Made by a program: the position numbers and the translations under genes
Shown here: one piece after another, positions 1,597-38,286 of the stretch
How the letters are laid out: the number at the start of each line of letters is the position of its first letter
Numbering within the stretch: the first letter of the stretch is position 1
From: Planctomycetota bacterium
GTDB taxonomy: Bacteria; Planctomycetota; Planctomycetia; Pirellulales; PLA5
DNA length: 52,027 bases
NCBI GenBank assembly: GCA_029259895.1
Contig: JAJDEG010000123.1
Coordinates: 1-52,027 of the forward strand
Direction of reading: 5' to 3'
Notes under the pieces: model-generated
What the model saw: the letters and a program-made list of their open reading frames with translations, nothing else
The model's database searches: none
What the model was told of the DNA's origin: nothing

Positions 1597-2250
1597 TCAA
1601 GCCTCACGCCTTCGTTGGACGAGGGCGGCGAGCTTGTCGACGACCTCCTCGGGTGTGAGGCCGTCGGTGCGAACTTCGATGGCGTCGGGGGCCGGGACGA
1701 GGGGGCCGACGGTGCGGGTGGCGTCGCTGGCGTCGCGGTCGTTTTGTTGGGCTAGGACTTCGTCGAAGTCGATCGTTTCGCCGCGGGCGAGGAGGTCGGC
1801 GTGGCGGCGGCGGGCGCGTTCTTCGGCGCTGGCGGTGAGGAAGATTTTGCACTCGGCATTGGGGAAAGCGACCGTGCCTTGGTCGCGGCCTTCGGTGACA
1901 AAGTCGGCGGCGGCGACGACGCGCTGCTGGAGGGCGACGAGGTGCGCTCGGACTTGGGGATTGCCTGCGGTGTGGCGGGTGAGGCGGGTGACTTCGACGG
2001 TGCGGATGGCGGCCGTGACGTCCTCACCGTCGAGCAGGACGCGCTCGGCCGTGACGTCGATGTTGGCGGCATTGGCGGCGTCGGCGACGGCTTGGGCGTC
2101 GTTCCAGTCGACGCCGCGGCGATGGGCGGCCAGCGCGGCGGCGCGATACATCGCGCCAGTGTCGAGGAAGCGGAAGCCGAGACGCTCGGCGAGCCGCCGC
2201 GCGACGACGCTTTTACCGGCACCGGCGGGTCCGTCGATGGTGACGATCAT
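1597..2250 (-). CDS. cmk: Cytidylate kinase
   Basis: IVTIDGPAGAGKS, LDTGAMYRA, EGRDQGT and FLTASAEERARRR motifs. Confidence 0.97.
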   Translation of the reverse strand: MIVTIDGPAGAGKSVVARRLAERLGFRFLDTGAMYRAAALAAHRRGVDWNDAQAVADAANAANIDVTAERVLLDGEDVTAAIRTVEVTRLTRHTAGNPQVRAHLVALQQRVVAAADFVTEGRDQGTVAFPNAECKIFLTASAEERARRRHADLLARGETIDFDEVLAQQNDRDASDATRTVGPLVPAPDAIEVRTDGLTPEEVVDKLAALVQRRREA

Positions 2251-30065: not shown

Positions 30066-30108
30066 AAAAAAATCGGCCCGGCGGCTGAGCTAACTCGGCC
30101 GCCGGGCC
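30066..30108 (-). terminator. Rho-independent terminator after the slipin gene
   Basis: GGCCCGGCGGCCGAG-TTAG-CTCAGCCGCCGGGCC followed by GA and T7. Confidence 0.85.
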
Positions 30109-30115
30109 TTCACGA

Positions 30116-31228
30116 CTACAGCAGATTAACGACCTTGTCGGCCAGACCCTTTTCGCCCAACACGACGTTGAGCTTCGACGCCGTGGCGATCTTCTCGAGG
30201 ACTTCCAGTTCCTTGAGCCGCATCAGCGTCGGACTTTCGGCCAGCAGCCGGGCCGTGTTGGCCTGGCTGCGCATGGCGGCCGTTTCCTCGCGACGGGCGA
30301 TGAGGTTCGCCTCGGCGACCTTCTTGGCCTCCGTGACGCGGTTCATCAGGTCCTTCATTTCGCCCGGCAGGATCACGTCGCGGATGCCGACCGAGATCAG
30401 TTCGATGCCGAGCGCGTGCGCCCGGCCGCGAACCGCTTCGGCTAACTCCGCCGCGACTGCGTCCTTGTCGACGAGGAAGGCGTCCAACTCGCGAGCGCCG
30501 ATCACCGCCCGCAAGGCAAGCTGCGCCTCGCGGTACAGCGCCTGCTGAGCGTTCTCGGCGACCGTCACGGCCAACCGCGCGTCGACGACGCGGTAGTTCA
30601 CCACGGCGTTGACGCGAAGCGTGACCTTGTCGGCCGTCATGATGTCCTGGCCCGCGATGTCGATCACCGCTTCACGCATGTCCTCCTGGACGAACGTGAC
30701 TTGCGCCACGTTCTTCCAGAAGGCGTAGCGGCCCGGCGGCAGCGTCTCGACGTAGCGGCCGTCGATGAGCAGCACGCCCTGATGGTGCGGCTCGACCGTG
30801 CCGATCTCCAGCACGCGGTCCGCCATCGACGAACGCGTGATCGTCTGCAGCGCGTTGTGCTCGAACCGCACGCGACGCGCGTCGACCACTTCGGACTTCA
30901 CCTCGCGGACGCCGGTCCAATACGCATACAAGCCCGGCGGCAGCACGTGACTGAAGCGGCCGTCGATCCACACGAGCGCGCGCTCGTTGTCCTTCAGGTC
31001 GAGCACGGTCGCGCGGCCCGCCAACGCGCTCGACTTGACGATCACGTCGAGCTTCACATGGACGAACCACGGATCGCGCTGCGACACGACTTCCACGCGG
31101 AGCTTGCCGAGCGGGTCGAACATCCAGTAGCAGCCCGGCGCGACGAGTCCGACGAACTCGTCGTCGCGGAACCGCAGGCCGATCTCGTAGCTGCGAATCG
31201 TGATGCGGTGGAACAACATGAAATACAT
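30116..31228 (-). CDS. Slipin family (SPFH/band-7) protein
   Basis: Repeated LPPG.Y.(F/Y)W beta units; GQDIMTADKVTLRVN, GIRDVILPGEMK and RREETAAMRSQANTARLL..PTLMRLKELE motifs; AAGGAG SD. Confidence 0.92.
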   Translation of the reverse strand: MYFMLFHRITIRSYEIGLRFRDDEFVGLVAPGCYWMFDPLGKLRVEVVSQRDPWFVHVKLDVIVKSSALAGRATVLDLKDNERALVWIDGRFSHVLPPGLYAYWTGVREVKSEVVDARRVRFEHNALQTITRSSMADRVLEIGTVEPHHQGVLLIDGRYVETLPPGRYAFWKNVAQVTFVQEDMREAVIDIAGQDIMTADKVTLRVNAVVNYRVVDARLAVTVAENAQQALYREAQLALRAVIGARELDAFLVDKDAVAAELAEAVRGRAHALGIELISVGIRDVILPGEMKDLMNRVTEAKKVAEANLIARREETAAMRSQANTARLLAESPTLMRLKELEVLEKIATASKLNVVLGEKGLADKVVNLL

Positions 31229-31339
31229 TGATCGGTCTCCTTCTTTCTCGATTTTTTTCTATCTGCTCAGCTACTATCTGTCACACGCGTCACCGTGGTT
31301 GCAGAAGGAGTACGACATTCGCGGCAACGCGCTGGTTCA

Positions 31340-31721
31340 CAAAAAATGCCCGCGGGCGATGAATCGTGTTCGCCGGTCGCGCGAGTTCGTGCGGAGTGCG
31401 GTTGAGCATCGCGGCGACTGGTGGTCGAGCGGCTTGGCGGCGAGCGTTGCAAGAAGCAATTGCTTCCCGCGCAACTCGGCGCTTGGCCGACTTTTCCGGC
31501 AGTGCAGCGACGCGGTATCCGCGCACTTCAGGGCACTACGCTCGTGCTGCCGTTGGCGAACGCGCACAACGCCTCGACGCAACGCACGCGCCAGTTCACA
31601 ACTGGCACGGCGTCGGTTTCGTCGTTCGCACGCGCCGCCGCCGGCTGACCTGCAAATCGTTCATCGCCGTTGGGCGACGGTTCGTGCTTTTGGGGCACGT
31701 GGAGCCGATGGTTCGCATCGG
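31340..31721 (-). ncRNA. Candidate structured RNA between the tRNA-like element and slipin
   Basis: Dense hairpins (GCCGATG/CATCGGC, CGTGC/GCACG, GCCAGTT/AACTGGC, TCGGC/GCCGA), a long-range GGCGATGAA/TTCATCGCC pair and no convincing ORF. Confidence 0.4.
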
Positions 31722-31794
31722 CGAGTGGTGCGGGATTCGAACCCACTACAGCCAGATTCATGGTCTGGTGCTCTATCCACTGAGCTAACCACAG
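31722..31794 (-). ncRNA. tRNA-like element (Arg-ACG-like body, loop CC-ATG-AA, 5-bp acceptor stem)
   Basis: GTGGT TAGCTCAGTGGATAGAGCA CCAGA CCATGAA TCTGG CTGTA GTGGG TTCGAAT CCCGC ACCAC. Confidence 0.7.
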
Positions 31795-31949
31795 GGGGTG
31801 CATCGCGGCCTTCGTCATATTCCACTCGCGGAACACGAATCGCTAACCGTCCGTAGATCGGAGCGACGCGCGCCGCTGGCCCAGCCGCGAAATACCTTGC
31901 TTGAAAATCGTTGCGTGATGTCGGCACGTTAGCACCGCACCACGCAAAA

Positions 31950-32021
31950 AGACGCCGGTGGGAGTCGAACCCACTTTGAACCGCTTTGCAGGCGGTCGCC
32001 TCGCCGTCTGGCTCCAGCGTC
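31950..32021 (-). tRNA. tRNA-Cys(GCA)
   Basis: GACGCTG/CGGCGTC acceptor, ACCGC-CTGCAAA-GCGGT, GGTTCGACTCC, U73. Confidence 0.9.
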
Positions 32022-32095
32022 GTGACCTCGCTCGCCGTTACCGGTGAGCGAGGATAGCTTTCATTCTCTAAAAGTAGTGGTCGCGATTGACGCCA

Positions 32096-32263
32096 TCAAA
32101 AACGGCCTGCCTTCATGCAGCACTTCTTGAATCGCTTGCCGCTGCCGCACGGACACATGTCGTTTCGGCCGAGCTTTTCTTCGAGTTGCTTGTCGCCATG
32201 TACGATTCGCACGCCGCGCTTGACGTGCGTTTCGGATGGGAGGCCCTTACGCCGTTTACTCAT
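32096..32263 (-). CDS. Small SEC-C metal-binding motif protein (core frame; possibly extended at both ends by +1 frameshifts)
   Basis: MSKRRKG...[21 protein letters not shown]. Confidence 0.85.
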
Positions 32264-32306
32264 CGTCTCGAAAGCAGGACTGATCTTCTTGTTCGACCTC
32301 GCACAT
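32256..32306 (-). CDS. 16-aa upstream ORF ([16 protein letters not shown]) overlapping the SEC-C start
   Basis: GGAGGT 5 nt before the ATG; its stop overlaps the SEC-C ATG (ATG-AG-TAA); contains TTT-CGA. Confidence 0.55.
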
Positions 32307-32350
32307 GGCACACCTCCATCGTGGAAAACCTCGTTGCTTCCAACAATCAG

Positions 32351-32424
32351 CGTCCTCGCCAGGAGTCGAACCTGGCCCTCGACCTTCGCAGGGTCGCGTG
32401 CAACATCCGGCACACCCCGAGGAC
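32351..32424 (-). tRNA. tRNA-Arg(GCG)
   Basis: GTCCTCG/CGAGGAC, CGACC-CTGCGAA-GGTCG, CCAGG-TTCGACT-CCTGG. Confidence 0.85.
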
Positions 32425-32514
32425 TTGAACAGGGGTTGGGGGTCGGGGACTAGGGGCTGGGAAAACGCGACAACGTTCTATGCCCTCCCGCCTCTGGCCT
32501 CCGGCCTGCTCGAG

Positions 32515-32585
32515 CGCCTCGCCGAGGAGTCGAACCTCGTCTTGCAGTTTCGAAGACTGCCGTGCGTCCATCACACTCGCAAGGC
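32515..32585 (-). tRNA. tRNA-Arg(TCG)
   Basis: GCCTTGC/GCGAGGC, GCAGT-CTTCGAA-ACTGC, CGAGG-TTCGACT-CCTCG. Confidence 0.85.
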
Positions 32586-32975
32586 CGACCACCGTTGCCG
32601 CGGGCATCGCCGTCGACGACGAGCAACTGCGGCGACTTGATGCTCGTCGACGTAGACAATCCTTCCCGGCTCGTAGGTTCGCTGCATTTGAACGGGCACA
32701 CCGGCGTCGCGCACCGCGGCGACTAGCTCCCACATCGTCGCGATCATCCGCCGCGAACCGCAGCGAAACCAGAACAGCGCTCGCCAACCGTGGCCGCCGA
32801 GATCCGGCATGTGCAGATGTTCGCCGAACCAGTCAAGCGTCTCGCCAATCCAATCGCGCAGGACTTCGTCGACGTGCGCGGACGTTTCGACTTGTCCCGC
32901 CGCCGCGAATATTCCCAGTGGCCGCGCCGTGTTTTCGCACCGCAGCGGCGTTTGAAATCGCAAGTAAGTTTCCAT
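32571..32975 (-). CDS. Hypothetical protein within the tRNA array
   Basis: METYLRF...LDWFGEHL..P...ALFWFR...MWELVAAVRDAGVPV....PGRIVYVDEHQVAAV looks protein-like. The stop falls inside tRNA-Arg(TCG). Confidence 0.65.
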   Translation of the reverse strand: METYLRFQTPLRCENTARPLGIFAAAGQVETSAHVDEVLRDWIGETLDWFGEHLHMPDLGGHGWRALFWFRCGSRRMIATMWELVAAVRDAGVPVQMQRTYEPGRIVYVDEHQVAAVARRRRRCPRQRWSALRV

Positions 32976-33052
32976 CGCATTGGCTTTCGCACTGGCTTTC
33001 GCATTGTCGCGCTTCGCTTCATGACCGAAATGTCGTTGATTCAATTAGACAA

Positions 33053-33141
33053 AGCCGACGACTGGATTCGCACCAGCATGAGCCGCCGTCTTTCCGTGTT
33101 GCCGTCAAGACCGGCGGTTTTCTACGTCGAGCCACGTCGGC
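33053..33141 (-). ncRNA. tRNA-like element with an extended anticodon arm and no canonical anticodon loop
   Basis: Perfect GCCGACG/CGTCGGC acceptor; GCTGG-TGCGAAT-CCAGT T-arm; CCGCC(G)GTCTT/AAGACGGCGG arm with a 14-nt loop. Confidence 0.6.
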
Positions 33142-33144
33142 AAG

Positions 33145-33215
33145 CACGAGCGCGAGGATTCGAACCCCGTGCGCCGGCTTTGGAGACCGGCTGCTCTCCC
33201 AGGAGCACACTCGTG
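33145..33215 (-). tRNA. tRNA-Trp(CCA)
   Basis: ACGAGTG/CGCTCGT, CCGGT-CTCCAAA-GCCGG, GGTTCGAATCC, G73; short D loop. Confidence 0.8.
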
Positions 33216-33256
33216 TTTCGCTCAACGACAGCCAGCCGCCGGGCGACGCTTCTACA

Positions 33257-33850
33257 TTACGATTGCAGCGGAACATTCCAGTACGTTTCGCTGACGAACT
33301 TCGACCAGCTTTCACTCGCCACGTCGTGCCGGGCGTATAGGGGCTTCCATGTCGGCCGCACCGGCGGCTTGCGCAGCTTCATGCCGGCCTCGCGCGGCGT
33401 GCGGTCGGCCTTGCGGTGGTTGCACGCGATGCACGCCAGCACGCAGTTCGTCCACGACGACGCGCCGCCTTTCGCACGCGGTGTAACGTGGTCGATGGTC
33501 AACTCGCCGCCGCCGGGCTGAGCGCCGCAGTATTGGCAGGTCCAGTGGTCCCGCTTGAATACGTTGCGCCGGCTGAAGCTGACCGCCGCGTCGGGCAACC
33601 GGTCGTACTCGGCCAGCACAATCACCTCCGGCACGCGCAGCCGTCGCCGCACCGCGCGGATGAACGCATCGCCGTCGCGCGGCGCGATCCGCGACCAATC
33701 GGCCCAGGTGTAAAGCTGGTAAGTCTCCGGATCGACCACCCGCGCCGCCTCGTTCCACACCAGCACCAGCGCCCGGGCGACAGTCGCTACGTTCACCGGC
33801 TGCCAGTTGCGGTTGAGGATCAGCGCCGGGCGCTGTAGTGTACGAGTCAT
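33257..33850 (-). CDS. HNH endonuclease (McrA-like)
   Basis: LILNRNWQPV, FSRRNVFKRDHWTCQYCG, LTIDHVTPRAKGG.SSWTNCVLAC..CN.RKADRTP motifs; ATG at 33850. Confidence 0.93.
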   Translation of the reverse strand: MTRTLQRPALILNRNWQPVNVATVARALVLVWNEAARVVDPETYQLYTWADWSRIAPRDGDAFIRAVRRRLRVPEVIVLAEYDRLPDAAVSFSRRNVFKRDHWTCQYCGAQPGGGELTIDHVTPRAKGGASSWTNCVLACIACNHRKADRTPREAGMKLRKPPVRPTWKPLYARHDVASESWSKFVSETYWNVPLQS

Positions 33851-33879
33851 GGTTCTTGATCCAACTTGGAGTCGCGATT

Positions 33880-34281
33880 GTGGTTGAAGAGCGAAAAGTT
33901 GACGTTTTTTGGACGGTCCGCAAGGGTCAGCGTCATTCAATTTCGTTGACGGAAAACGAAGCCTGGAAGTATCTTGAATTGCGTGCTTATTTCGGCGAGG
34001 AACCGAACGGATGGTCAGTCGATAAAACACGTGAAGTGGTCCCCGTTGTTTACGGAGAGATCGTTGAAGGCGAGGGAACAATGGTGGAGTTGGATGATGA
34101 CGGCAATGAAACGGTTTGTCGGGCGTACATTGCGTTAAGCGTATTCTGGAACTGCCCACACTGCGGCGAACGGCACAATGTCAGCCTCTACGATAACCCT
34201 ATCGAACAAACGGCCGAGGCATCGAATCCGTCGATCTGGGTTTGTGAACGGGGCGAAGGGCATTCGATTGTTCATTGGTAG
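33880..34281 (+). CDS. Hypothetical protein with a CPHC motif, antisense to the array
   Basis: GGAG then GTG at 33880; acidic 133-aa ORF with visibly lower GC than its neighbours. Confidence 0.55.
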   Translation: MVEERKVDVFWTVRKGQRHSISLTENEAWKYLELRAYFGEEPNGWSVDKTREVVPVVYGEIVEGEGTMVELDDDGNETVCRAYIALSVFWNCPHCGERHNVSLYDNPIEQTAEASNPSIWVCERGEGHSIVHW

Positions 34282-34332
34282 CCGTTGGATTGCGACGCGC
34301 GCATCCGACGGCGTTCCAATCTGAACATTGAG

Positions 34333-34407
34333 GGTATCTGACCGGACTCGAACCGGTACCTCTTGGTTCACAGCCAAGTGTGCAGAAACCGCTACACCAC
34401 AGACACC
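34333..34407 (-). tRNA. tRNA-His(GTG)
   Basis: G-1:C73, GTGTCTG/CAGATAC, CTTGG-CTGTGAA-CCAAG. Confidence 0.9.
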
Positions 34408-34412
34408 ACATC

Positions 34413-34491
34413 AGGCTATAGGCTGTAGGCTGTAGGTCAGAGAAGGCGTGCGTCTGCAACCTAAAATCCTACGGCCTACAGCCTCCGGCCT
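34413..34491. repeat. Heptamer inverted-repeat spacer (AGGCTGT/ACAGCCT)
   Basis: aggctat aggctgt aggctgt agg ... cctacgg cctacag cctccgg cct. Confidence 0.75.
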
Positions 34492-34499
34492 ATTCTCAG

Positions 34500-34586
34500 C
34501 GGAAAGCAAGGGAGTCGAACCCTCATCTCGACGAGCGAGAACCGCGTTAGCACCGCGGCCCGGCCAACCGTATCCGGCTACCTTCC
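34500..34586 (-). tRNA. tRNA-Ser(GCT)
   Basis: GGAAGGT/GCTTTCC, CCGCG-GTGCTAA-CGCGG, long variable arm, G73. Confidence 0.88.
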
Positions 34587-34596
34587 GAGTTCGGCC

Positions 34597-35020
34597 GTAG
34601 GGGTTTAGGCTTTAGGTATTTAGGGAATGAGTATGCGAGACCATACGAAACTTCGGGCGTTCGAATTGGCGGATCGGCTCGCAATCGCGGTCTACAGGTC
34701 CACGGCGACGTTTCCTCGTGAGGAGCAGTTCGGCCTCACTTCGCAAATGCGCCGCGCGGCGGTTTCTGTCCCTTCCAACATCGTTGAAGGATGTGCGAGA
34801 GACTCCAGATCGGACTATGTCCGGTTTCTGGGTATCGCGTTCGGTTCCCTTCGAGAGTTGGATTACCAAGCGTCGCTCGCTCATCGCCTCGGCTATCTTG
34901 CCGGTTACGAATCGCTCGCGGCGCTCATGACCGAAACGTCCAAAGTTCTCGCTGCGTTGATCCGCTCTCTTCGTTCTCCCAAAACCTAACTGCCTAAACT
35001 CCTACAGCCTAAACTCCTAC
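34597..35020. mobile_element. IVS-like cassette: four-helix-bundle gene flanked by inverted TTTAGG/CCTAAA repeats
   Basis: Left end GTAGGGGTTTAGGC versus right end GCCTAAACTCCTAC (13/14 inverted match), with further TTTAGG/CCTAA units inside. Confidence 0.6.
34627..34989 (+). CDS. Four helix bundle protein (23S rRNA intervening-sequence protein family)
   Basis: FPREEQFGLTSQMRRAAVSVPSNIVEG and RFLGIAFGSLREL motifs. The start may be 34633. Confidence 0.93.
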   Translation: MSMRDHTKLRAFELADRLAIAVYRSTATFPREEQFGLTSQMRRAAVSVPSNIVEGCARDSRSDYVRFLGIAFGSLRELDYQASLAHRLGYLAGYESLAALMTETSKVLAALIRSLRSPKT

Positions 35021-35025
35021 CGCAG

Positions 35026-35096
35026 TGGACCGCCGGGGAGTCGAACCCCGATCCCCTGGTTGCAAGCCAGGTATCTTTCCGTTGGACGAGCAGCCC
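35026..35096 (-). tRNA. tRNA-Ala(TGC)
   Basis: G3:U70, CCTGG-CTTGCAA-CCAGG, A73. Confidence 0.9.
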
Positions 35097-35112
35097 GATT
35101 CTTCTGCTTCAA

Positions 35113-35183
35113 GGGTTCGTCCGGGAACTGAACCCGGCCTTCCGCCTTACCACGGCGGCGTGCAGCCGAAACACCTACAGACC
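35113..35183 (-). tRNA. tRNA-Thr(GGT), degenerate
   Basis: CCGCC-GTGGTAA-GGCGG; C:A mismatch in the acceptor stem; T loop TTCAGTT. Confidence 0.7.
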
Positions 35184-35193
35184 GTTCTTCGAG

Positions 35194-35266
35194 TGATCCC
35201 GGATGGAGTCGAACCATCGCTCTCCTGCTTGTCACGCAGGCGTCTTCGCCGTTGGACCACGGGATC
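35194..35266 (-). tRNA. tRNA-Val(GAC)
   Basis: GATCCCG/CGGGATC, CCTGC-GTGACAA-GCAGG, A73. Confidence 0.88.
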
Positions 35267-35275
35267 AGATACAAG

Positions 35276-35351
35276 TGACCGGAGTGGGCGTCGAACCCAC
35301 AAAATCACGAGGCTCTCGACCTCGTCGCTTTACCAGTTTGCGTACCCGGTC
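35276..35351 (-). tRNA. tRNA-Leu(GAG), short variable region, C33
   Basis: GACCGGG/TCCGGTC, CGAGG-TCGAGAG-CCTCG, variable region TGATTTT. Confidence 0.8.
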
Positions 35352-35443
35352 GGAACACGCCGGAGGCTGTAGACGGGAGGCCGGAGGAAAACTCGCAATT
35401 GCGTTCCTCAAGTCTCCGGCCTCAAGCCTCGCGTCTCTTCAAG

Positions 35444-35512
35444 TGGCAGGCTCGGGTGTCGCACCCGACGGTCCGGGCTTATGAGGCCCAGTTGAGCACT
35501 GGCTCGCCTGCG
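35444..35512 (-). tRNA. tRNA-Met(CAT)-like, non-canonical
   Basis: C1:C72 mismatch, GCAGGC/GCCTGC, TGGGC-CTCATAA-GCCCG, reduced D arm, T loop TGCGACA. Confidence 0.65.
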
Positions 35513-35516
35513 TCGT

Positions 35517-35620
35517 GGGAGGCTTGAGGGATGAGGCTTGAGGCGAGAGGAATGCAGTACAGCGTCTTCCTCAAGTCTCAAGTCTCAAGTCTCAAGCCTC
35601 ACGCCTCACGCCTCACGCCT
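35517..35620. repeat. Heptamer inverted-repeat spacer (GAGGCTT/AAGCCTC)
   Basis: gaggctt gagggat gaggctt gaggcga ... ctcaagt x3, ctcaagc, ctcacgc x3. Similar spacers at 32430-32508, 35361-35430, 35715-35807, 35886-35979 and 37515-37581. Confidence 0.8.
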
Positions 35621-35627
35621 TTTGCAG

Positions 35628-35714
35628 TGGGTCGTGAAGGAATTGAACCTCTCGTCGTCCACCTCACTTGTTTGCTGACAACGGCTTTACAGGCCGCCGT
35701 GAGGAACACGACCC
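35628..35714 (-). tRNA. tRNA-Tyr(GTA) lacking a D arm
   Basis: GGGTCGT/ACGACCC, GCGGC-CTGTAAA-GCCGT, long variable region, GG-TTCAATT-CC, A73. Confidence 0.7.
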
Positions 35715-35809
35715 GGAGGAGCTTTGAGTCCTGAGGTTTGAGGCGTGAGGGTTATAGAACCAACGGGCGATGCCTTCGGAACCTCAAGCCTCGTCCCTCA
35801 AGCCTCCAG

Positions 35810-35883
35810 TGGCACAGGCGGGAGTCGAACCCGCAGTCACCAAGGTTTGAGCTTGGCCGCTTTGCCGGTTTGCGTACCGTGCC
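35810..35883 (-). tRNA. tRNA-Leu(CAA), short variable loop
   Basis: GGCACGG/CTGTGCC, CCAAG-CTCAAAC-CTTGG, variable loop TGACT. Confidence 0.85.
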
Positions 35884-35981
35884 GTGGGAAGGCGCGAGGC
35901 TTGAGGCATGGGGCGTGAGGATCGTGCTGATTTCCATTTCCTCCTCAAGCCTCATCCCTCGAGCCTCAAGCCTACTCCCAG

Positions 35982-36056
35982 CGTCCCCGACGGGATTTGA
36001 ACCCGTGACCTCCACCGTGACAGGGTGGCGAGCACTCCAGGCTGCTCCACGAGGAC
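35982..36056 (-). tRNA. tRNA-Asp(GTC)
   Basis: GTCCTCG/CGGGGAC, CCACC-CTGTCAC-GGTGG, G73. Confidence 0.93.
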
Positions 36057-36071
36057 GATTCAATTTTGCAG

Positions 36072-36145
36072 TGGCTCAGGTGGGACTCGAACCCACAGCA
36101 TCTCTCGTTCTAAGCGAGAGTGGTCTGCCGATTGCCTACCGAGCC
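36072..36145 (-). tRNA. tRNA-Leu(TAG), short variable loop
   Basis: GGCTCGG/CTGAGCC, TCTCG-CTTAGAA-CGAGA. Confidence 0.85.
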
Positions 36146-36155
36146 GAAAGGTCAG

Positions 36156-36229
36156 TGCCCAGGGCCGGAGTCGAACCGGCAACCGCGTGGGTTTAAGCCG
36201 CGCCGCTCTACCGATTGGCGTACCTGGGC
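36156..36229 (-). tRNA. tRNA-Leu(TAA), short variable loop
   Basis: GCCCAGG/CCTGGGC, CGCGG-CTTAAAC-CCACG (one mismatch). Confidence 0.82.
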
Positions 36230-36232
36230 GAG

Positions 36233-36304
36233 TGGTCCCGGATGGACTCGAACCATCGTTTCCTGGGTGTAGGCCAGGAGTCGTTGCCGCTGGACCACGG
36301 GACT
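36233..36304 (-). tRNA. tRNA-Val(TAC), C33 and A1:C72
   Basis: CCTGG-CCTACAC-CCAGG, GATGG-TTCGAGT-CCATC. Confidence 0.8.
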
Positions 36305-36325
36305 GTTTGCATGATCGAGTCGAAG

Positions 36326-36400
36326 TTCCGGGGGTTGGAATCGAACCAACGGCTTTCTGATTCAGAGTCAGGCGTCACTACCAGCAGCAACTGCCCCGGA
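36326..36400 (-). tRNA. tRNA-Gln(CTG)
   Basis: TCCGGGG/CCCCGGA (U1-A72), CTGA-CTCTGAA-TCAG. Confidence 0.85.
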
Positions 36401-36436
36401 ATGCTGTTCGTGCTGACATGACTCGTCGCACGAAGG

Positions 36437-36507
36437 CTCGGGGAGATGGATTCGAACCACCACTGCCTGGTTCAAAGCCAGGCGGCCTGCCGTTAGCCGA
36501 TCCCCGA
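36437..36507 (-). tRNA. tRNA-Gln(TTG)
   Basis: TCGGGGA/TCCCCGA, CCTGG-CTTTGAA-CCAGG. Confidence 0.9.
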
Positions 36508-36517
36508 ATATCGTGAA

Positions 36518-36589
36518 AGTGCCCTGCGAGAGTCGAACTCGCCTGTCCAGCTTGGAAGGCTGGCGCCTCTGCCGCTCGGCCAAGGGCAC
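36518..36589 (-). tRNA. tRNA-Gly(TCC)
   Basis: GTGCCCT/AGGGCAC, CCAGC-CTTCCAA-GCTGG, U73. Confidence 0.88.
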
Positions 36590-36609
36590 GTCACTACGAA
36601 AGCTAGAGG

Positions 36610-36693
36610 CGGAAGGAGAGGGAGTCGAACCCTCAAGGCTCATCGCTCGACTGTTTTCGAAACAGTTGCCGTCGCCCATCGGCTTGCCCTTCC
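36610..36693 (-). tRNA. tRNA-Ser(CGA)
   Basis: GGAAGGG/TCCTTCC, ACTGT-TTCGAAA-ACAGT, long variable arm, G73. Confidence 0.9.
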
Positions 36694-36707
36694 GTATTCA
36701 TCAAAAG

Positions 36708-36782
36708 CTGCGGCGGCAGGAATCGAACCTGCGACTGGGCGCTTAACAGGCGCCTGCCGGTACCAGCACCGGCCCCACCGCA
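36708..36782 (-). tRNA. tRNA-Asn(GTT)
   Basis: TGCGGTG/CGCCGCA, GGCGC-CTGTTAA-GCGCC, G73. Confidence 0.88.
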
Positions 36783-36788
36783 ATCGAG

Positions 36789-36863
36789 TCGGCGTAGTTG
36801 GATTCGAACCAACGATCTCCTGCTCCCGAAGCAGGCGGATTTGCCAGGCTATCCCATACGCCG
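36789..36863 (-). tRNA. tRNA-Pro(CGG)
   Basis: CGGCGTA/TACGCCG, CCTGC-TTCGGGA-GCAGG, A73. Confidence 0.92.
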
Positions 36864-36871
36864 GTCGTCAA

Positions 36872-36942
36872 AGCGCCCAGCGGGAGTCGAACCCGCGCTT
36901 CCGCCTCGGCAAGGCAGCAGGCTGCCGCTACATCATGGGCGC
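36872..36942 (-). tRNA. tRNA-Gly(GCC)
   Basis: GCGCCCA/TGGGCGC, CTGCC-TTGCCGA-GGCGG, U73; weak D stem. Confidence 0.85.
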
Positions 36943-36973
36943 GCTTGGAGAAGTAAATTGTCAAAGAACTGAA

Positions 36974-37045
36974 AGCACTGGGCCGGACTCGAACCGGCGT
37001 TACCGCGTTACGAACGCGGAGTCCTTGCCTCTGGACGACCAGTGC
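36974..37045 (-). tRNA. tRNA-Thr(CGT)
   Basis: GCACTGG/CCAGTGC, CCGCG-TTCGTAA-CGCGG. Confidence 0.9.
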
Positions 37046-37076
37046 TTGCCAACGTCTTGTCGGTGTGACTTATCAG

Positions 37077-37149
37077 TGGGACCAGAAGGACTCGAACCTT
37101 CACCGACCTGGTTAAGAGCCAGGCATGCTGCCGCTAACACTTTGATCCC
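37077..37149 (-). tRNA. tRNA-Lys(CTT)
   Basis: GGGATCA/TGGTCCC, CCTGG-CTCTTAA-CCAGG. Confidence 0.9.
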
Positions 37150-37186
37150 GTTCAATCTCTGCTTGTCGTTTCCGCCTCTCGCGCGA

Positions 37187-37259
37187 TCGGCGCGGAAGGA
37201 GTCGAACCTTCGACCTGTGTCTTATAAGGACACGGCTCTCACCGCTGAGCTACGCGCCG
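37187..37259 (-). tRNA. tRNA-Ile(TAT)
   Basis: CGGCGCG/CGCGCCG, canonical D and T arms, GTGTC-CTTATAA-GACAC, A73. Confidence 0.9.
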
Positions 37260-37405
37260 GCACTGAAGCCAGACCAATCTGGCCGAATGGGGCCGAAGGG
37301 AGTCGAACCCTTACCATTCCGCTTAAAAGGCGGAAGCGCTACCGTTACGCCACGACCCCGAAAATGGATCGGACGTATGCGTTTGAGCCGCGTCGTTTGT
37401 CGCAT
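37250..37405 (-). CDS. Candidate 51-aa Arg-rich ORF reading through tRNA-Lys(TTT)
   Basis: AAGGAG-AACAACA-ATG CGA CAA ACG ACG CGG CTC AAA CGC ATA CGT ...; stops at the TAG in the 5' end of tRNA-Ile(TAT). Confidence 0.45.
   Translation of the reverse strand: MRQTTRLKRIRPIHFRGRGVTVALPPFKRNGKGSTPFGPIRPDWSGFSAGA
37288..37359 (-). tRNA. tRNA-Lys(TTT)
   Basis: GGGGTCG/CGGCCCC, TCCGC-CTTTTAA-GCGGA. Confidence 0.9.
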
Positions 37406-37438
37406 TGTTGTTCTCCTTGCGTTCTTTGCTCGCGCGAA

Positions 37439-37509
37439 TAGTCCGGGGTGGAGTTGAACCACCGCCGACGACGTATCAGATCGCCATGCTTCCGTTACAC
37501 CACCGGACA
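37439..37509 (-). tRNA. tRNA-Ile(GAT)
   Basis: GTCCGG/CCGGAC with U1:U72, GCGAT-CTGATAC-GTCGT. Confidence 0.8.
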
Positions 37510-37586
37510 GCAATCAGGCCGAAGGCCCAAGGCGGTGGGTCGACAATGCGTTTACTCGTGCGGCCTACCGCCTCCAGCCTGCTCAG

Positions 37587-37660
37587 CGGCTCGTATGGGA
37601 GTCGAACCCATCTCCCGGCCTTGAAAGGGCCGTATCCTCAAACCGATAGACGAACGAGCC
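37587..37660 (-). tRNA. tRNA-Glu(TTC)
   Basis: GGCTCGT/ACGAGCC, CGGCC-CTTTCAA-GGCCG, G73. Confidence 0.92.
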
Positions 37661-37687
37661 GAAATCTGCGCGCACACTGAGCGCAAG

Positions 37688-37759
37688 TGGGTCGGGAGGC
37701 GCTCGAATCCTCGTCTCCTGGTCTTCAACCAAGCGCTAAACCATCTCAGCTACCGACCC
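37688..37759 (-). tRNA. tRNA-Phe(GAA), non-canonical (G37, A53:G61)
   Basis: GGGTCGG/CCGACCC, CTTGG-TTGAAGA-CCAGG, T arm GAGGA-TTCGAGC-GCCTC. Confidence 0.78.
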
Positions 37760-37801
37760 ATCGTTTTGTTCCGGCATGGCTTCGCGCTCGCCAAGACCAA
37801 C

Positions 37802-37834
37802 AAAAAAAGGCCCGGCGTTGTAACGCCAGGCCTT
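37802..37834 (-). terminator. Attenuator terminator upstream of the first tRNA
   Basis: AAGGCCTGGCGT-TACA-ACGCCGGGCC followed by T7. Confidence 0.85.
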
Positions 37835-37859
37835 GAATTGCCTTTCGAGCCGAATTGCC

Positions 37860-37874
37860 GGCCGAGCGTCACAA
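37860..37874 (-). promoter_or_regulatory. Antiterminator strand containing the leader stop codon
   Basis: TTGTGACGCTCGGCC pairs 14/15 (2 GU) with GGCCTGGCGTTACAA, the terminator 5' arm plus loop (37818-37832). Confidence 0.75.
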
Positions 37875-37997
37875 GCGCAATGGATGCGCGGGGCTATTCC
37901 CTACGAGGCCATTCCGATAATCGGAACAGGCGGCTCGCAGCGCGGAATAACCCGCAACTATGCGTTCTTGGTTCGATCTCGGCCGTAAAAACAACAT
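37869..37997 (-). CDS. Candidate 42-aa leader peptide MLFLRPRSNQERIVAGYSALRAACSDYRNGLVGNSPAHPLRL
   Basis: GGAG 11 nt upstream; contains TTA, AGA, ATA, CGA and GTA codons; the stop lies within the antiterminator. Confidence 0.65.
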   Translation of the reverse strand: MLFLRPRSNQERIVAGYSALRAACSDYRNGLVGNSPAHPLRL

Positions 37998-38071
37998 TGA
38001 ACGAATCGCTCCATTCACAAAAGGTTCGTGAAACTAGCGGTCGCGATGCCACCGCGGCGTTTGTTAACCCT

Positions 38072-38101
38072 TTAGACGCCACCAAGAGACGCAAGGTTCA
38101 C
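38072..38101 (-). promoter_or_regulatory. ECF-sigma-type promoter of the tRNA array
   Basis: GTGAACC-N16-CGTCTAA, matching the general ECF pattern (GAAC -35, CGTC/TCTAA -10). Confidence 0.65.
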
Positions 38102-38286
38102 AGGGTTGATCCAAGTTTGCGCCAAATATTCCCGGCGAAGAAGCGTCGTGGCAAGCAACGACACAACGCACGGACCGTTTCGGATCGCGACAGCGCTCAC
38201 TTGCGGCCCGGCACGATGCGCCATTACGATGGCTCGCGAAACGACTTTTGGCCGTGGCGTTCTTTATCTCAAGTGTTTGGATGGCG

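Follow-up and report, generated by a model that had tools for sequence, protein, structure and literature searches.

We analyzed positions 1–52,027 of contig JAJDEG010000123.1 of assembly GCA_029259895.1, from a Planctomycetota bacterium (Pirellulales; PLA5), and refer to this whole stretch as the window. On its minus strand, the window carries a dense array of 30 tRNA genes (37759–31720), which is a supernumerary and divergent second tRNA set of its host. The array is preceded by a conserved leader, whose sequence suggests that this long tRNA array is probably controlled by an extracytoplasmic function (ECF)-type promoter and a trp-like, ribosome-sensing attenuator, and that it would serve as a spare set switched on when ribosomes slow. 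In the best reading of the comparative data, the locus is one copy of a long supernumerary tRNA array that is widespread in the Pirellulales, carries its own HNH endonuclease gene, and may have spread horizontally. The tRNA genes were called with ARAGORN and cross-scored with Rfam models, and protein domains were identified with Pfam. The host assembly (G000) comprises 791 contigs and 7.19 Mb. The HNH protein was searched for in 40 relatives, and the leader in 151 genomes of the order Pirellulales and 150 genomes of other orders, using a covariance model (R1) built from 8 leaders; an alignment of 31 leaders (A3) was used for the structural comparisons. The coordinates of all features are given in Table 1.

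The 450 nt upstream of the first gene of the array, tRNA-Phe, are conserved across families. In the window, they contain a leader of approximately 260 nt, with a short open reading frame (ORF) and an intrinsic terminator before the first tRNA gene. The leader ORF looks translated. The frame ran from the aligned start to the aligned TGA in 30 of the 31 leaders, through 10 distinct lengths (96–153 nt), and the 31st leader has an alternative in-frame ATG. The start codon was ATG in 27 leaders, GTG in two, and shifted by one codon in one. No stop codon interrupted the ORF frame in any of the 30 leaders, whereas stops occurred in 28 and 19 of the 30 in the other two frames. Since the length variation sits in a variable hairpin inside the ORF, each indel there is a multiple of three. 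The column entropies at codon positions 1, 2, and 3 were 0.67, 0.84, and 1.02 bits, respectively, so that the third position was the most variable. The consensus of the peptide is M.FLRPSS.QER.G.GYSA...[variable]...GN.P.HPLRL, and the stop codon is always TGA, at the same place. Rare codons account for 8 of the 42 codons in the window ORF, compared with 5.9% genome-wide. The three rarest sense codons used, TTA, AGA, and ATA (1.5–2.6 per thousand), are codons 4, 7, and 13, and thus lie on or just after the first pairing strand of the leader (region 1). Reading the alignment by eye, rather than by a scripted count, we find that roughly 18 of 30 leaders retain TTA as codon 4, and no run of a single codon occurs.

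The leader contains strands that can pair in mutually exclusive ways. Region 1 pairs with CTCGGCCG, which lies in region 2 just after the stop codon, to form helix P1, and the stop-codon strand TTGTGACGCTCGGCC, which overlaps region 2, is complementary to the 5′ arm and the loop of the terminator (regions 3 and 4). In alignment A3, P1 (columns 29–35 and 174–180) was 87.6% paired, with double changes at three of its seven pairs, and it was seen in the minimum-energy folds of full leaders. The terminator was present in all 31 leaders, was 99.4% paired with double changes at three pairs, and was followed by a U-tract. When P1 and the terminator were combined, 94.6% of the cells were paired, 27 double-change cells were counted against the 9.7 expected, and none of 500 shuffles reached the pairing score or the covariation score. 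The antiterminator, a helix of 14 positions (columns 167–180 and 214–227), was 88.7% paired, compared with 29–45% when its partner was slid along the alignment. When the segment was folded by itself, this helix was part of the minimum-energy structure in 30 of the 31 leaders, and its median free energy was −24.0 kcal/mol, vs. −23.1 kcal/mol for the terminator. Unless the two form an alternative pairing, it is difficult to account for a conserved terminator loop that has its match in an upstream strand.

A GAACC-N15/16-CGTCTA motif was found 62–116 nt upstream of the leader ATG in 26 of the 31 leaders, and near variants differing by one base occurred in four more. The initial annotation had postulated an ECF-type promoter, a leader terminator, and two layers of control, one by an ECF sigma factor and one by ribosome-coupled attenuation. 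The leader comparison now gives these claims comparative backing, in the strictly or nearly conserved motif, the preserved ORF frame, the invariably present terminator, and the exclusive pairings.

In the proposed mechanism, transcription would start at the ECF-type promoter, with a predicted first nucleotide near 38066, approximately 7 nt beyond CGTCTA, and proceed through the leader. Pairing of region 1 with region 2 would leave the terminator (regions 3 and 4) free to form, whereas pairing of region 2 with the 5′ arm and loop of the terminator would create the antiterminator. If no ribosome were present, P1 and the terminator would form and the array would be off. A fast ribosome that reached the TGA would cover region 2, and the terminator would again form. 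If the ribosome were slowed within the ORF, by scarce or damaged tRNAs, starvation, or ribosome inhibitors, region 1 would be held or P1 melted, and region 2 would be free to capture region 3, with read-through into the tRNA genes. Because the ORF has no one-codon run and spans the whole P1 domain, it would respond to slow decoding in general and not to the lack of a particular amino acid. A second gate, at the level of the sigma factor, would be provided by the ECF-type promoter. Read-through would yield the divergent second tRNA set, followed in this copy by a tRNA-like RNA and a Band-7 gene. Only 40 nt separate the U-tract from tRNA-Phe, which leaves a separate promoter little space and would make read-through the simplest source of array transcripts. 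We infer from this arrangement that the array is inducible, depends on a sigma factor, senses ribosomes, and benefits the host by rescue.

Several observations weigh against this interpretation. The aligned leaders are akin to one another, so the shuffle controls overstate the significance of the pairings. The antiterminator has hardly any covariation, with one double-change pair, a value reached by 446 of 500 shuffles, and its support comes from conservation and from the slid controls, which favor structures derived from the same sequences; pair 33:176 of P1 is unpaired in 14 of the 31 leaders. The promoter is labeled by its likeness to what we take to be the consensus motifs of ECF-type promoters, with a spacing of 16–17 nt. 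A scan of the host genome for the motif returned five matches, where approximately 3.6 were expected, and this lack of enrichment is uninformative on a regulon. No sigma factor gene was recognizable behind these five matches in a simple print-out of ORFs, which were not searched against sigma families, and neither shared upstream flanks nor an adjoining regulator, such as a linked sigma or anti-sigma gene, was found at the arrays beyond the same genus. Most leaders have no recognizable Shine–Dalgarno sequence. The peptide motifs RPSS.QER, GYSA, and HPLRL are conserved, for which a pure speed sensor has no need and which might therefore hint at another mechanism. Many arrays are decayed, as would be expected of selfish or cryptic DNA, and the same applies to the broken HNH genes. 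In metatranscriptomes, the few contigs that aligned to the window were sequences of relatives covering the Ile(GAU) tRNA and Glu–Phe only; they cannot show the starts or ends of transcripts, and their lack of coverage over the leader carries no weight. Among the sequencing runs, the whole stretch was present only in its probable source metagenome (0.96 of words), and two RNA runs contained 6–7% of the words. Two of the contigs from relatives continue upstream past Phe, and the sequence that they reach there terminates with a U-rich tract; they are compatible with read-through in these relatives and give a weak hint of it, but may represent DNA carry-over.

The distribution of the array was traced with both the HNH protein and the leader. 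The HNH search produced two classes of matches. A form with 53–82% identity was found in 18 of the 40 relatives, at 20 places, of which 14 were surrounded by 5–36 tRNAs, one by four, and five by 0–2; some of these tRNA-poor loci have an interrupted HNH gene or lie at a contig end. A synteny comparison, which the initial annotation had proposed, revealed the same tRNA order around the HNH gene in these relatives. The shared order begins Phe-Glu-(Pro)-Ile-Lys-Ile(UAU)-Lys-Thr-Gly-Pro-Asn-Ser-Gly-Gln-Gln-Val-Leu-Leu-Asp-Leu-(Tyr)-Glu-Leu-(Met)-Leu and continues directly as Val-Thr-Ala-Ala-Ser-Arg-His-[HNH]-Trp-Thr-Arg-Arg-Arg-Cys. Complete copies contain 34–35 tRNA genes, and one copy of 34 genes lies at 3.35 Mb of a 4.2-Mb single-contig genome. 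The second class is an HNH paralogue of approximately 200 amino acids with 38–46% identity, which was present in nearly every one of the 40 relatives, as well as in the host, and lay outside tRNA arrays as far as seen. The leader model R1 matched in 73 of the 151 genomes of the order, across most families and in up to four copies per genome, and in one of the 150 genomes from other orders of the phylum. The tRNA genes lay directly downstream of the leader in 29 of the 30 best loci, which were the ones inspected among more than 100 leader matches; in the remaining locus, the leader is followed by 1.2 kb without a tRNA call and then by the contig end. A second, weak leader match was found in the host genome, on contig C782 (E = 5.6e-4). 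The distribution is patchy within the order and nearly restricted to it, and the array tRNAs are only 48–73% identical to those of the host.

These data also bear on the alternative that the array is cryptic selfish DNA spread by the HNH endonuclease, in which the promoter, small ORF, and terminator would represent a separate small gene or a silencer, and the tRNAs would confer no regulated benefit on the host. The patchy occurrence, with 2–4 copies in some genomes, fits such an element, as do the many decayed copies with 0–8 tRNAs beside the HNH gene and the HNH genes interrupted by in-frame stops or split over two frames in several genomes (L002, L185, L186, and others), in which the tRNAs persist. 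The upstream flanks differ between families, hairpins similar to repetitive extragenic palindromes (REPs) stand in place of tRNAs in the window copy, and low expression of L-arrays is described in the accessible text of PMC8421152. However, different families share the order of the tRNAs as well as the short-arm Leu tRNAs and unusual anticodons described below, the terminator loop and the stop-codon strand are complementary in 31 leaders, which would be useless in a plain terminator, and the leader directly precedes the tRNAs at nearly all of the loci inspected. We consider it unlikely that selfish spread alone accounts for the locus.

It is quite unlikely that the leader is a ligand- or RNA-binding switch, comparable to a riboswitch or a T-box, in which a ligand-stabilized P1 makes the choice and the ORF is incidental or secondary. 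A long-range P1 that encloses a multi-stem domain with a variable hairpin, followed by an antiterminator and a terminator, would also be the layout of an OFF riboswitch, and several internal stretches of the leader are conserved at the nucleotide level. Nevertheless, an untranslated aptamer has no reason to keep a frame free of stops through 10 length variants, and a scan of positions 37760–38260 against Rfam at E ≤ 10 returned no family, riboswitch, or T-box, but only weak small-RNA and terminator-like matches. The conservation of LRPS, QER, GYSA, GN.P, and HPLRL-stop across families, together with the invariable TGA, could instead indicate that the peptide itself is active, either as an arrest peptide responding to a particular small molecule or factor, in the manner of the TnaC or Erm leaders, or as a small protein acting in trans. 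This seems very unlikely, given that most of the conserved stretches coincide with the RNA pairing strands (regions 1 and 2), so that their conservation may be at the RNA level, and that the central part of the peptide varies freely in length and sequence.

The genomic setting was examined in 13 flanking ORFs (19.7–29.8 kb and 38.2–50.8 kb), of which eight had Pfam domain matches and five did not. The flanking genes have an ordinary chromosomal look and include those for an SDR, an OYE-type reductase, a giant LTD/CotH/dockerin protein, and a GFO/IDH/MocA protein. The claim of the initial annotation that no integrase, phage, or plasmid genes are nearby thus holds for these 13 ORFs, with the reservation that five lack a Pfam match and that 1–19.6 kb lies outside the scan. 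It is highly improbable that the block is a remnant of an integrated prophage or plasmid tRNA cluster, because, although phages, jumbo phages among them, and plasmids bearing tRNA arrays have HNH homologues with 31–40% identity, no integrase, transposase, or phage domain was detected in the 13 ORFs, the G+C content of the array (0.56–0.62) is not distinct from that of the flanks (0.60–0.66), and copies are chromosomal, as in the single-contig genome mentioned above. A 95-nt ARAGORN call of tRNA-Ala(GGC) at 2028–2122 (+), remote from the array and within long ORFs, is probably a false call.

With this call, the window contains 31 ARAGORN tRNA genes; the 30 of the array occupy 6.04 kb (approximately five per kb) in a single orientation. 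The spacers are mostly 3–100 nt; where they are wider, they are taken up by the HNH gene, the SEC-C ORF, an insert, or REP-like hairpins. The 25 calls of block A run in the order Phe, Glu, Ile(GAU), Lys(UUU), Ile(UAU), Lys(CUU), Thr, Gly, Pro, Asn, Ser, Gly, Gln, Gln, Val, Leu(UAA), Leu(UAG), Asp, Leu(CAA), Leu(GAG), Val, Thr, Ala, Ser, and His. The Rfam gathering score for tRNA was reached by 24 of the 30 array calls. Four class II or odd tRNAs matched the tRNA-Sec model best, under its cut-off, Arg(GCG) scored 23.5 bits, and Thr(GGU) had no Rfam match at E ≤ 1. The initial annotation had counted 31 tRNAs for all 20 amino acids. Thirty calls stand, and the confident ones account for 18 amino acids. 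For Met and Tyr, the array has no more than sub-threshold elements at the corresponding syntenic positions, the Met(CAU)-like one receiving no ARAGORN call even at a low threshold. The initial annotation had also listed two tRNA-like RNAs; the “His(AUG)” call, which is one of the 30, is a tRNA-like RNA, and a further, odd tRNA-like element of 89 nt is present. No array tRNA encodes CCA, as it had stated, and neither does any housekeeping tRNA of the genome.

Table 1. Features of the tRNA array locus in the window and related features in other contigs (minus-strand features are read from the higher to the lower coordinate)
Feature	Position	Strand	Description and basis
ECF-type promoter-like motif	38073..38099	-	−35 GAACC 38099–38095, 16-nt spacer, −10 CGTCTA 38078–38073; A/T-rich tract before it
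Leader ORF	37869..37997	-	42 codons + TGA, peptide MLFLRPRSNQERIVAGYSALRAACSDYRNGLVGNSPAHPLRL and stop; frame conserved in 31-leader alignment
Region 1	37978..37988	-	TTACGGCCGAG; leader codons 4–7; 5′ strand of helix P1; pairs with 37859–37866
Region 2	37859..37874	-	TTGTGACGCTCGGCCG; contains leader stop codon; P1 3′ strand and antiterminator 5′ strand
Leader intrinsic terminator	37800..37834	-	12-bp stem 37834–37807, U7 37806–37800; free energy (dG) −23.4, z-score −5.5
tRNA block A	34332..37759	-	25 ARAGORN calls; ARAGORN, Rfam; related arrays share order
Tyr(GUA)-like class II tRNA remnant	35628..35715	-	Sub-threshold; Rfam tRNA-Sec model 25.4 bits; anticodon loop CUGUAAA; syntenic Tyr position
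Met(CAU)-like tRNA-like element	35431..35510	-	Sub-threshold; Rfam Tymo_tRNA-like (viral) model 26.3 bits; anticodon loop CUCAUAA; ahead of Leu(GAG), where syntenic arrays have Met
HNH endonuclease gene	33257..33850	-	~197 aa; Pfam HNH/HNH_5; phrog_16726; extent from homologue alignment
tRNA block B	31950..33214	-	Trp, odd 89-nt tRNA-like element, 467-nt insert, Arg(UCG), Arg(GCG), SEC-C ORF, Cys; ARAGORN, Rfam
Odd 89-nt tRNA-like element	33053..33141	-	Within tRNA block B
SEC-C ORF	32096..32263	-	Small, basic, 55 aa; C-terminal SEC-C zinc-binding motif; between Arg(GCG) and Cys; Pfam SEC-C E 7e-9
tRNA-like RNA, ARAGORN “His(AUG)”	31720..31794	-	Upstream of Band-7 gene; C33, 5-bp acceptor stem; Rfam tRNA 47.6 bits
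Band-7/SPFH (slipin-like) gene	30116..31228	-	370 aa; Pfam Band_7 E 2.7e-31
3′ intrinsic terminator	30066..30108	-	Stem 30108–30075, U7 at 30072–30066; dG −32.4, z-score −5.8
HNH paralogue in host genome	G000 contig C584:35121-35735		
Rsr/Ro60 homologues	L015:11778-13406, L016:3622-5250, L024:3838-5448		TROVE + Ro60 vWA; after last array tRNA

The rest of the genome contains 51 other tRNA calls, which cover all 20 amino acids and selenocysteine. Because of this complete housekeeping set, the array is supernumerary, and the possibility raised in the initial annotation that it holds the only housekeeping copies of the genome does not apply. Array tRNAs were 48–73% identical to the housekeeping tRNA of the same anticodon, and their anticodon loops differed from those of their housekeeping counterparts in 19 of 26 comparable cases. 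Only four array anticodons were missing from the housekeeping set: Arg(GCG), Arg(UCG), Ile(UAU), and “His(AUG)”. Of the five Leu isoacceptors of the arrays, the four with anticodons GAG, CAA, UAG, and UAA (35275–35351, 35809–35883, 36071–36145, and 36155–36229 in the window) are 73–80 nt long and have a variable region of 5–7 nt, yet they retain typical tRNA-Leu features, namely a 3-bp D-stem, a large D-loop, and A73. The short variable arm was found in all 25 instances of these four isoacceptors across the arrays examined (the window and L011–L030), whereas the Leu(CAG) of the arrays is long-armed (83–86 nt) and the housekeeping Leu tRNAs are 82–86 nt. Arg(GCG), Arg(UCG), Arg(CCG), and Ile(UAU) are found in the same arrays, which in no case include Arg(ACG) and only rarely a CAU tRNA; the housekeeping set contains Arg(ACG) and three CAU tRNAs. 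Editing of A34 to inosine or of CAU to lysidine would therefore be unneeded for the arrays. In the array of genome G086 (L035 / L186:13130-13199), the tRNA at the syntenic Lys(UUU) position was read by ARAGORN with the anticodon UUA, which is complementary to the ochre stop codon.

These properties permit a more far-reaching reading, which we put forward tentatively and regard as possible rather than likely. The Pirellulales may possess an inducible, self-contained, “hardened” decoding set, in which the leader ORF, as a generic sensor of ribosome speed under a dedicated ECF sigma factor, would respond to damage or depletion of the housekeeping pool by freeing approximately 35 divergent tRNAs. 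With Ile(UAU) in place of the lysidine-modified CAU, Arg GCG, UCG, and CCG in place of the inosine-forming ACG, and Leu tRNAs without the long variable arm, such a set might be independent of the anticodon editing of the host and might differ where anticodon nucleases cut. It could be coupled to the tRNA-like RNA and Band-7 protein, or to Rsr and Y RNA, as a tRNA-level damage response or form of immunity.

Some spacers of the window array have a content of their own. Imperfect long hairpins of GAGGCYTGAGG-type repeats fill positions 34407–34498, 35352–35626, 35715–35808, and 35884–35980, at sites where syntenic arrays have tRNAs such as Glu(CUC) and Leu(CAG). In the genome, 66 occurrences of the motif are spread over 42 contigs; the window contig has eight, seven of them within 35420–35943, and the motif looks like a REP-like element that entered the array. 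An ORF of 90 amino acids between Ser(GCU) and Ala(UGC), at 34612–34884 (−), had no family match; its protein is 69% identical in an array of the same genus (L023), and part of it is 75% identical at the DNA level in L053. The 467-nt insert at 32586–33052 (−), between the odd tRNA-like element and Arg(UCG), contains an ORF of 157 amino acids, also without a family match. In a tblastn search, this ORF showed 43% identity over 122 amino acids to a stretch of L016 that directly follows its Cys tRNA and contains stops. The gap sequences of the array are conserved with close relatives only.

In terms of protein genes, Pfam identified each of the three that the initial annotation had named, that is, the HNH gene, the SEC-C gene, and the slipin (Band-7/SPFH) gene, and the strong terminator that it had placed at the 3′ end was also recovered. 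A Band-7 gene was present at three of the 20 other HNH loci searched, and it is 71–91% identical downstream of the arrays L023, L014, and L017. A SEC-C gene was found at one of the 20 loci and in two further arrays. The SEC-C ORF is 81–83% identical and at the same position in L014 and L185, and is spread over two reading frames in L186, these being three arrays of another family. From these occurrences, we judge the SEC-C and slipin genes to be accessory and not core parts of the array. The “His(AUG)” call upstream of the Band-7 gene is, to judge by its sequence, a tRNA-like RNA and not a decoder, because it has C33 and a 5-bp acceptor stem. Its body is kept in L023, L014, and the window, where the anticodon loop differs, and L017 has only a tRNA-like T-arm in place of the tRNA-like RNA. 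A Band-7 protein and a “band 7-associated tRNA” beside RtcB, interchangeable with Rsr and Y RNA, are described in preprint 10.1101/312249, which cites Burroughs & Aravind 2016 for them, and by analogy the “His(AUG)” RNA is a candidate for this type of tRNA (b7a-tRNA).

The region directly upstream of the Band-7 gene, 31229–31400 (−), contains a stretch with CGCACTCCGC followed by a T-tract in all four Band-7 arrays, and AACCGCACTCCGCA occurs within this stretch in three of the four (window, L023, L014, and L017). An internal terminator suspected before the Band-7 gene folded no better than shuffled sequences (z-score 0.27) and was rejected. A second promoter-like motif, GAACC-N17-GTCGTA, precedes the Band-7 gene, but only in the window and in L023, its congener, and with it the locus may fit two transcripts as well as one.

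The arrays L015, L016, and L024 end with an Rsr/Ro60 gene (TROVE and vWA domains) in place of Band-7. Upstream of these genes are two repeats that share the motifs CTTCGTCG, CGACTGCC, and GGAGTACAT and have tRNA-like T-arms. The repeats are possible Y RNAs, and no YrlA or Y RNA reached the Rfam gathering score in six related loci. No RtcB gene lies beside the window array; the RtcB matches of the genome are on contigs C482 and C502 only. On the short contig C502 (L180, L182), an RtcB gene scoring 288 bits shares its strand with a weak TROVE match that, at 20 bits, falls below the cut-off, and this pair may be a separate rsr–rtcB repair locus.

The combination of a long tRNA array with an HNH gene, and the induction of such an array by stress, are already known. 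By definition, a tRNA array unit comprises 20 or more tRNA genes, with two or more per kb (PMC4758250, accessible text), and the window array, with 30 calls in 6.04 kb on one strand, supernumerary to the host set and with an HNH gene inside, falls within this definition. Long tRNA arrays are reported from several phyla, Planctomycetes included, in the accessible portions of PMC4758250 and PMC8421152. We found no paper on leader-peptide attenuation linked to tRNA arrays and none that combines tRNA arrays with the Pirellulales, with the limit that the supplementary list of L-array species in PMC8421152 may already name Pirellulales arrays. As far as we searched, what is new is the control by an attenuator, the conservation across the order, the association with Band-7/b7a-tRNA or Rsr, and the peculiar set of tRNAs. 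The role and control of long tRNA arrays are understood in Anabaena only, and the Pirellulales now provide arrays across an order with a control region that can be read from sequence, in which a stress-type promoter and a trp-like attenuator would have tRNAs as their output. If this is true, slow decoding would induce more and different tRNAs in a feedback loop, and the leader would be a clean sensor of translation speed. The arrays also link tRNA arrays to the Band-7/b7a-tRNA and Rsr/Y-RNA repair modules, and their short-arm Leu tRNAs and inosine- and lysidine-avoiding anticodons offer handles for studies of tRNA identity and modification.

The closest counterpart is the trn operon of Anabaena/Nostoc sp. 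PCC 7120, which, like the window array, is a long supernumerary array on one strand, in a host with a full housekeeping set and with a neighboring HNH homing-type gene. According to the accessible text of PMC8421152, the Anabaena array is reported to be normally silent, is induced by translational stress, aids survival, and is reported to be controlled via promoter repeats. In contrast, the window array is preceded by an ECF-type promoter and a putative leader-peptide attenuator, and these Pirellulales copies are chromosomal, whereas the Anabaena array is on a plasmid. Among the arrays of Mycobacterium, its plasmids, and phages (PMC5966550, accessible text), that of the Mycolicibacterium plasmid pCBMA213_1 has approximately 29 tRNAs, among which lies an HNH gene that belongs to the family found here and shows 36% identity, but, unlike the window array, it shows another tRNA order, long-arm Leu tRNAs (85 nt), and Arg(ACG). 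An HNH match on an Acaryochloris plasmid has no tRNAs within 7 kb.

With the Band-7/b7a-tRNA module, the window shares a tRNA-like RNA whose anticodon loop is non-canonical and which is directly followed by a Band-7 gene, and Rsr/Ro60 occupies this 3′ spot in other arrays. In contrast to the module with an adjacent RtcB, the RtcB genes of this host are on C482 and C502, and the Pirellulales modules sit at the end of a tRNA array with over 30 genes. With the trp, his, and phe leader-peptide attenuators and the antibiotic-responsive one of bmrCD (PMC4191407, accessible text), the leader shares a short ORF, alternative 1:2, 2:3, and 3:4 pairings, and a terminator before the first gene; its rare codons in region 1 may correspond to the regulatory codons of these systems. 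It differs from them in that its output would be tRNAs, it has no codon run for an amino acid, and its ORF spans P1, with the stop codon inside the antiterminator strand.

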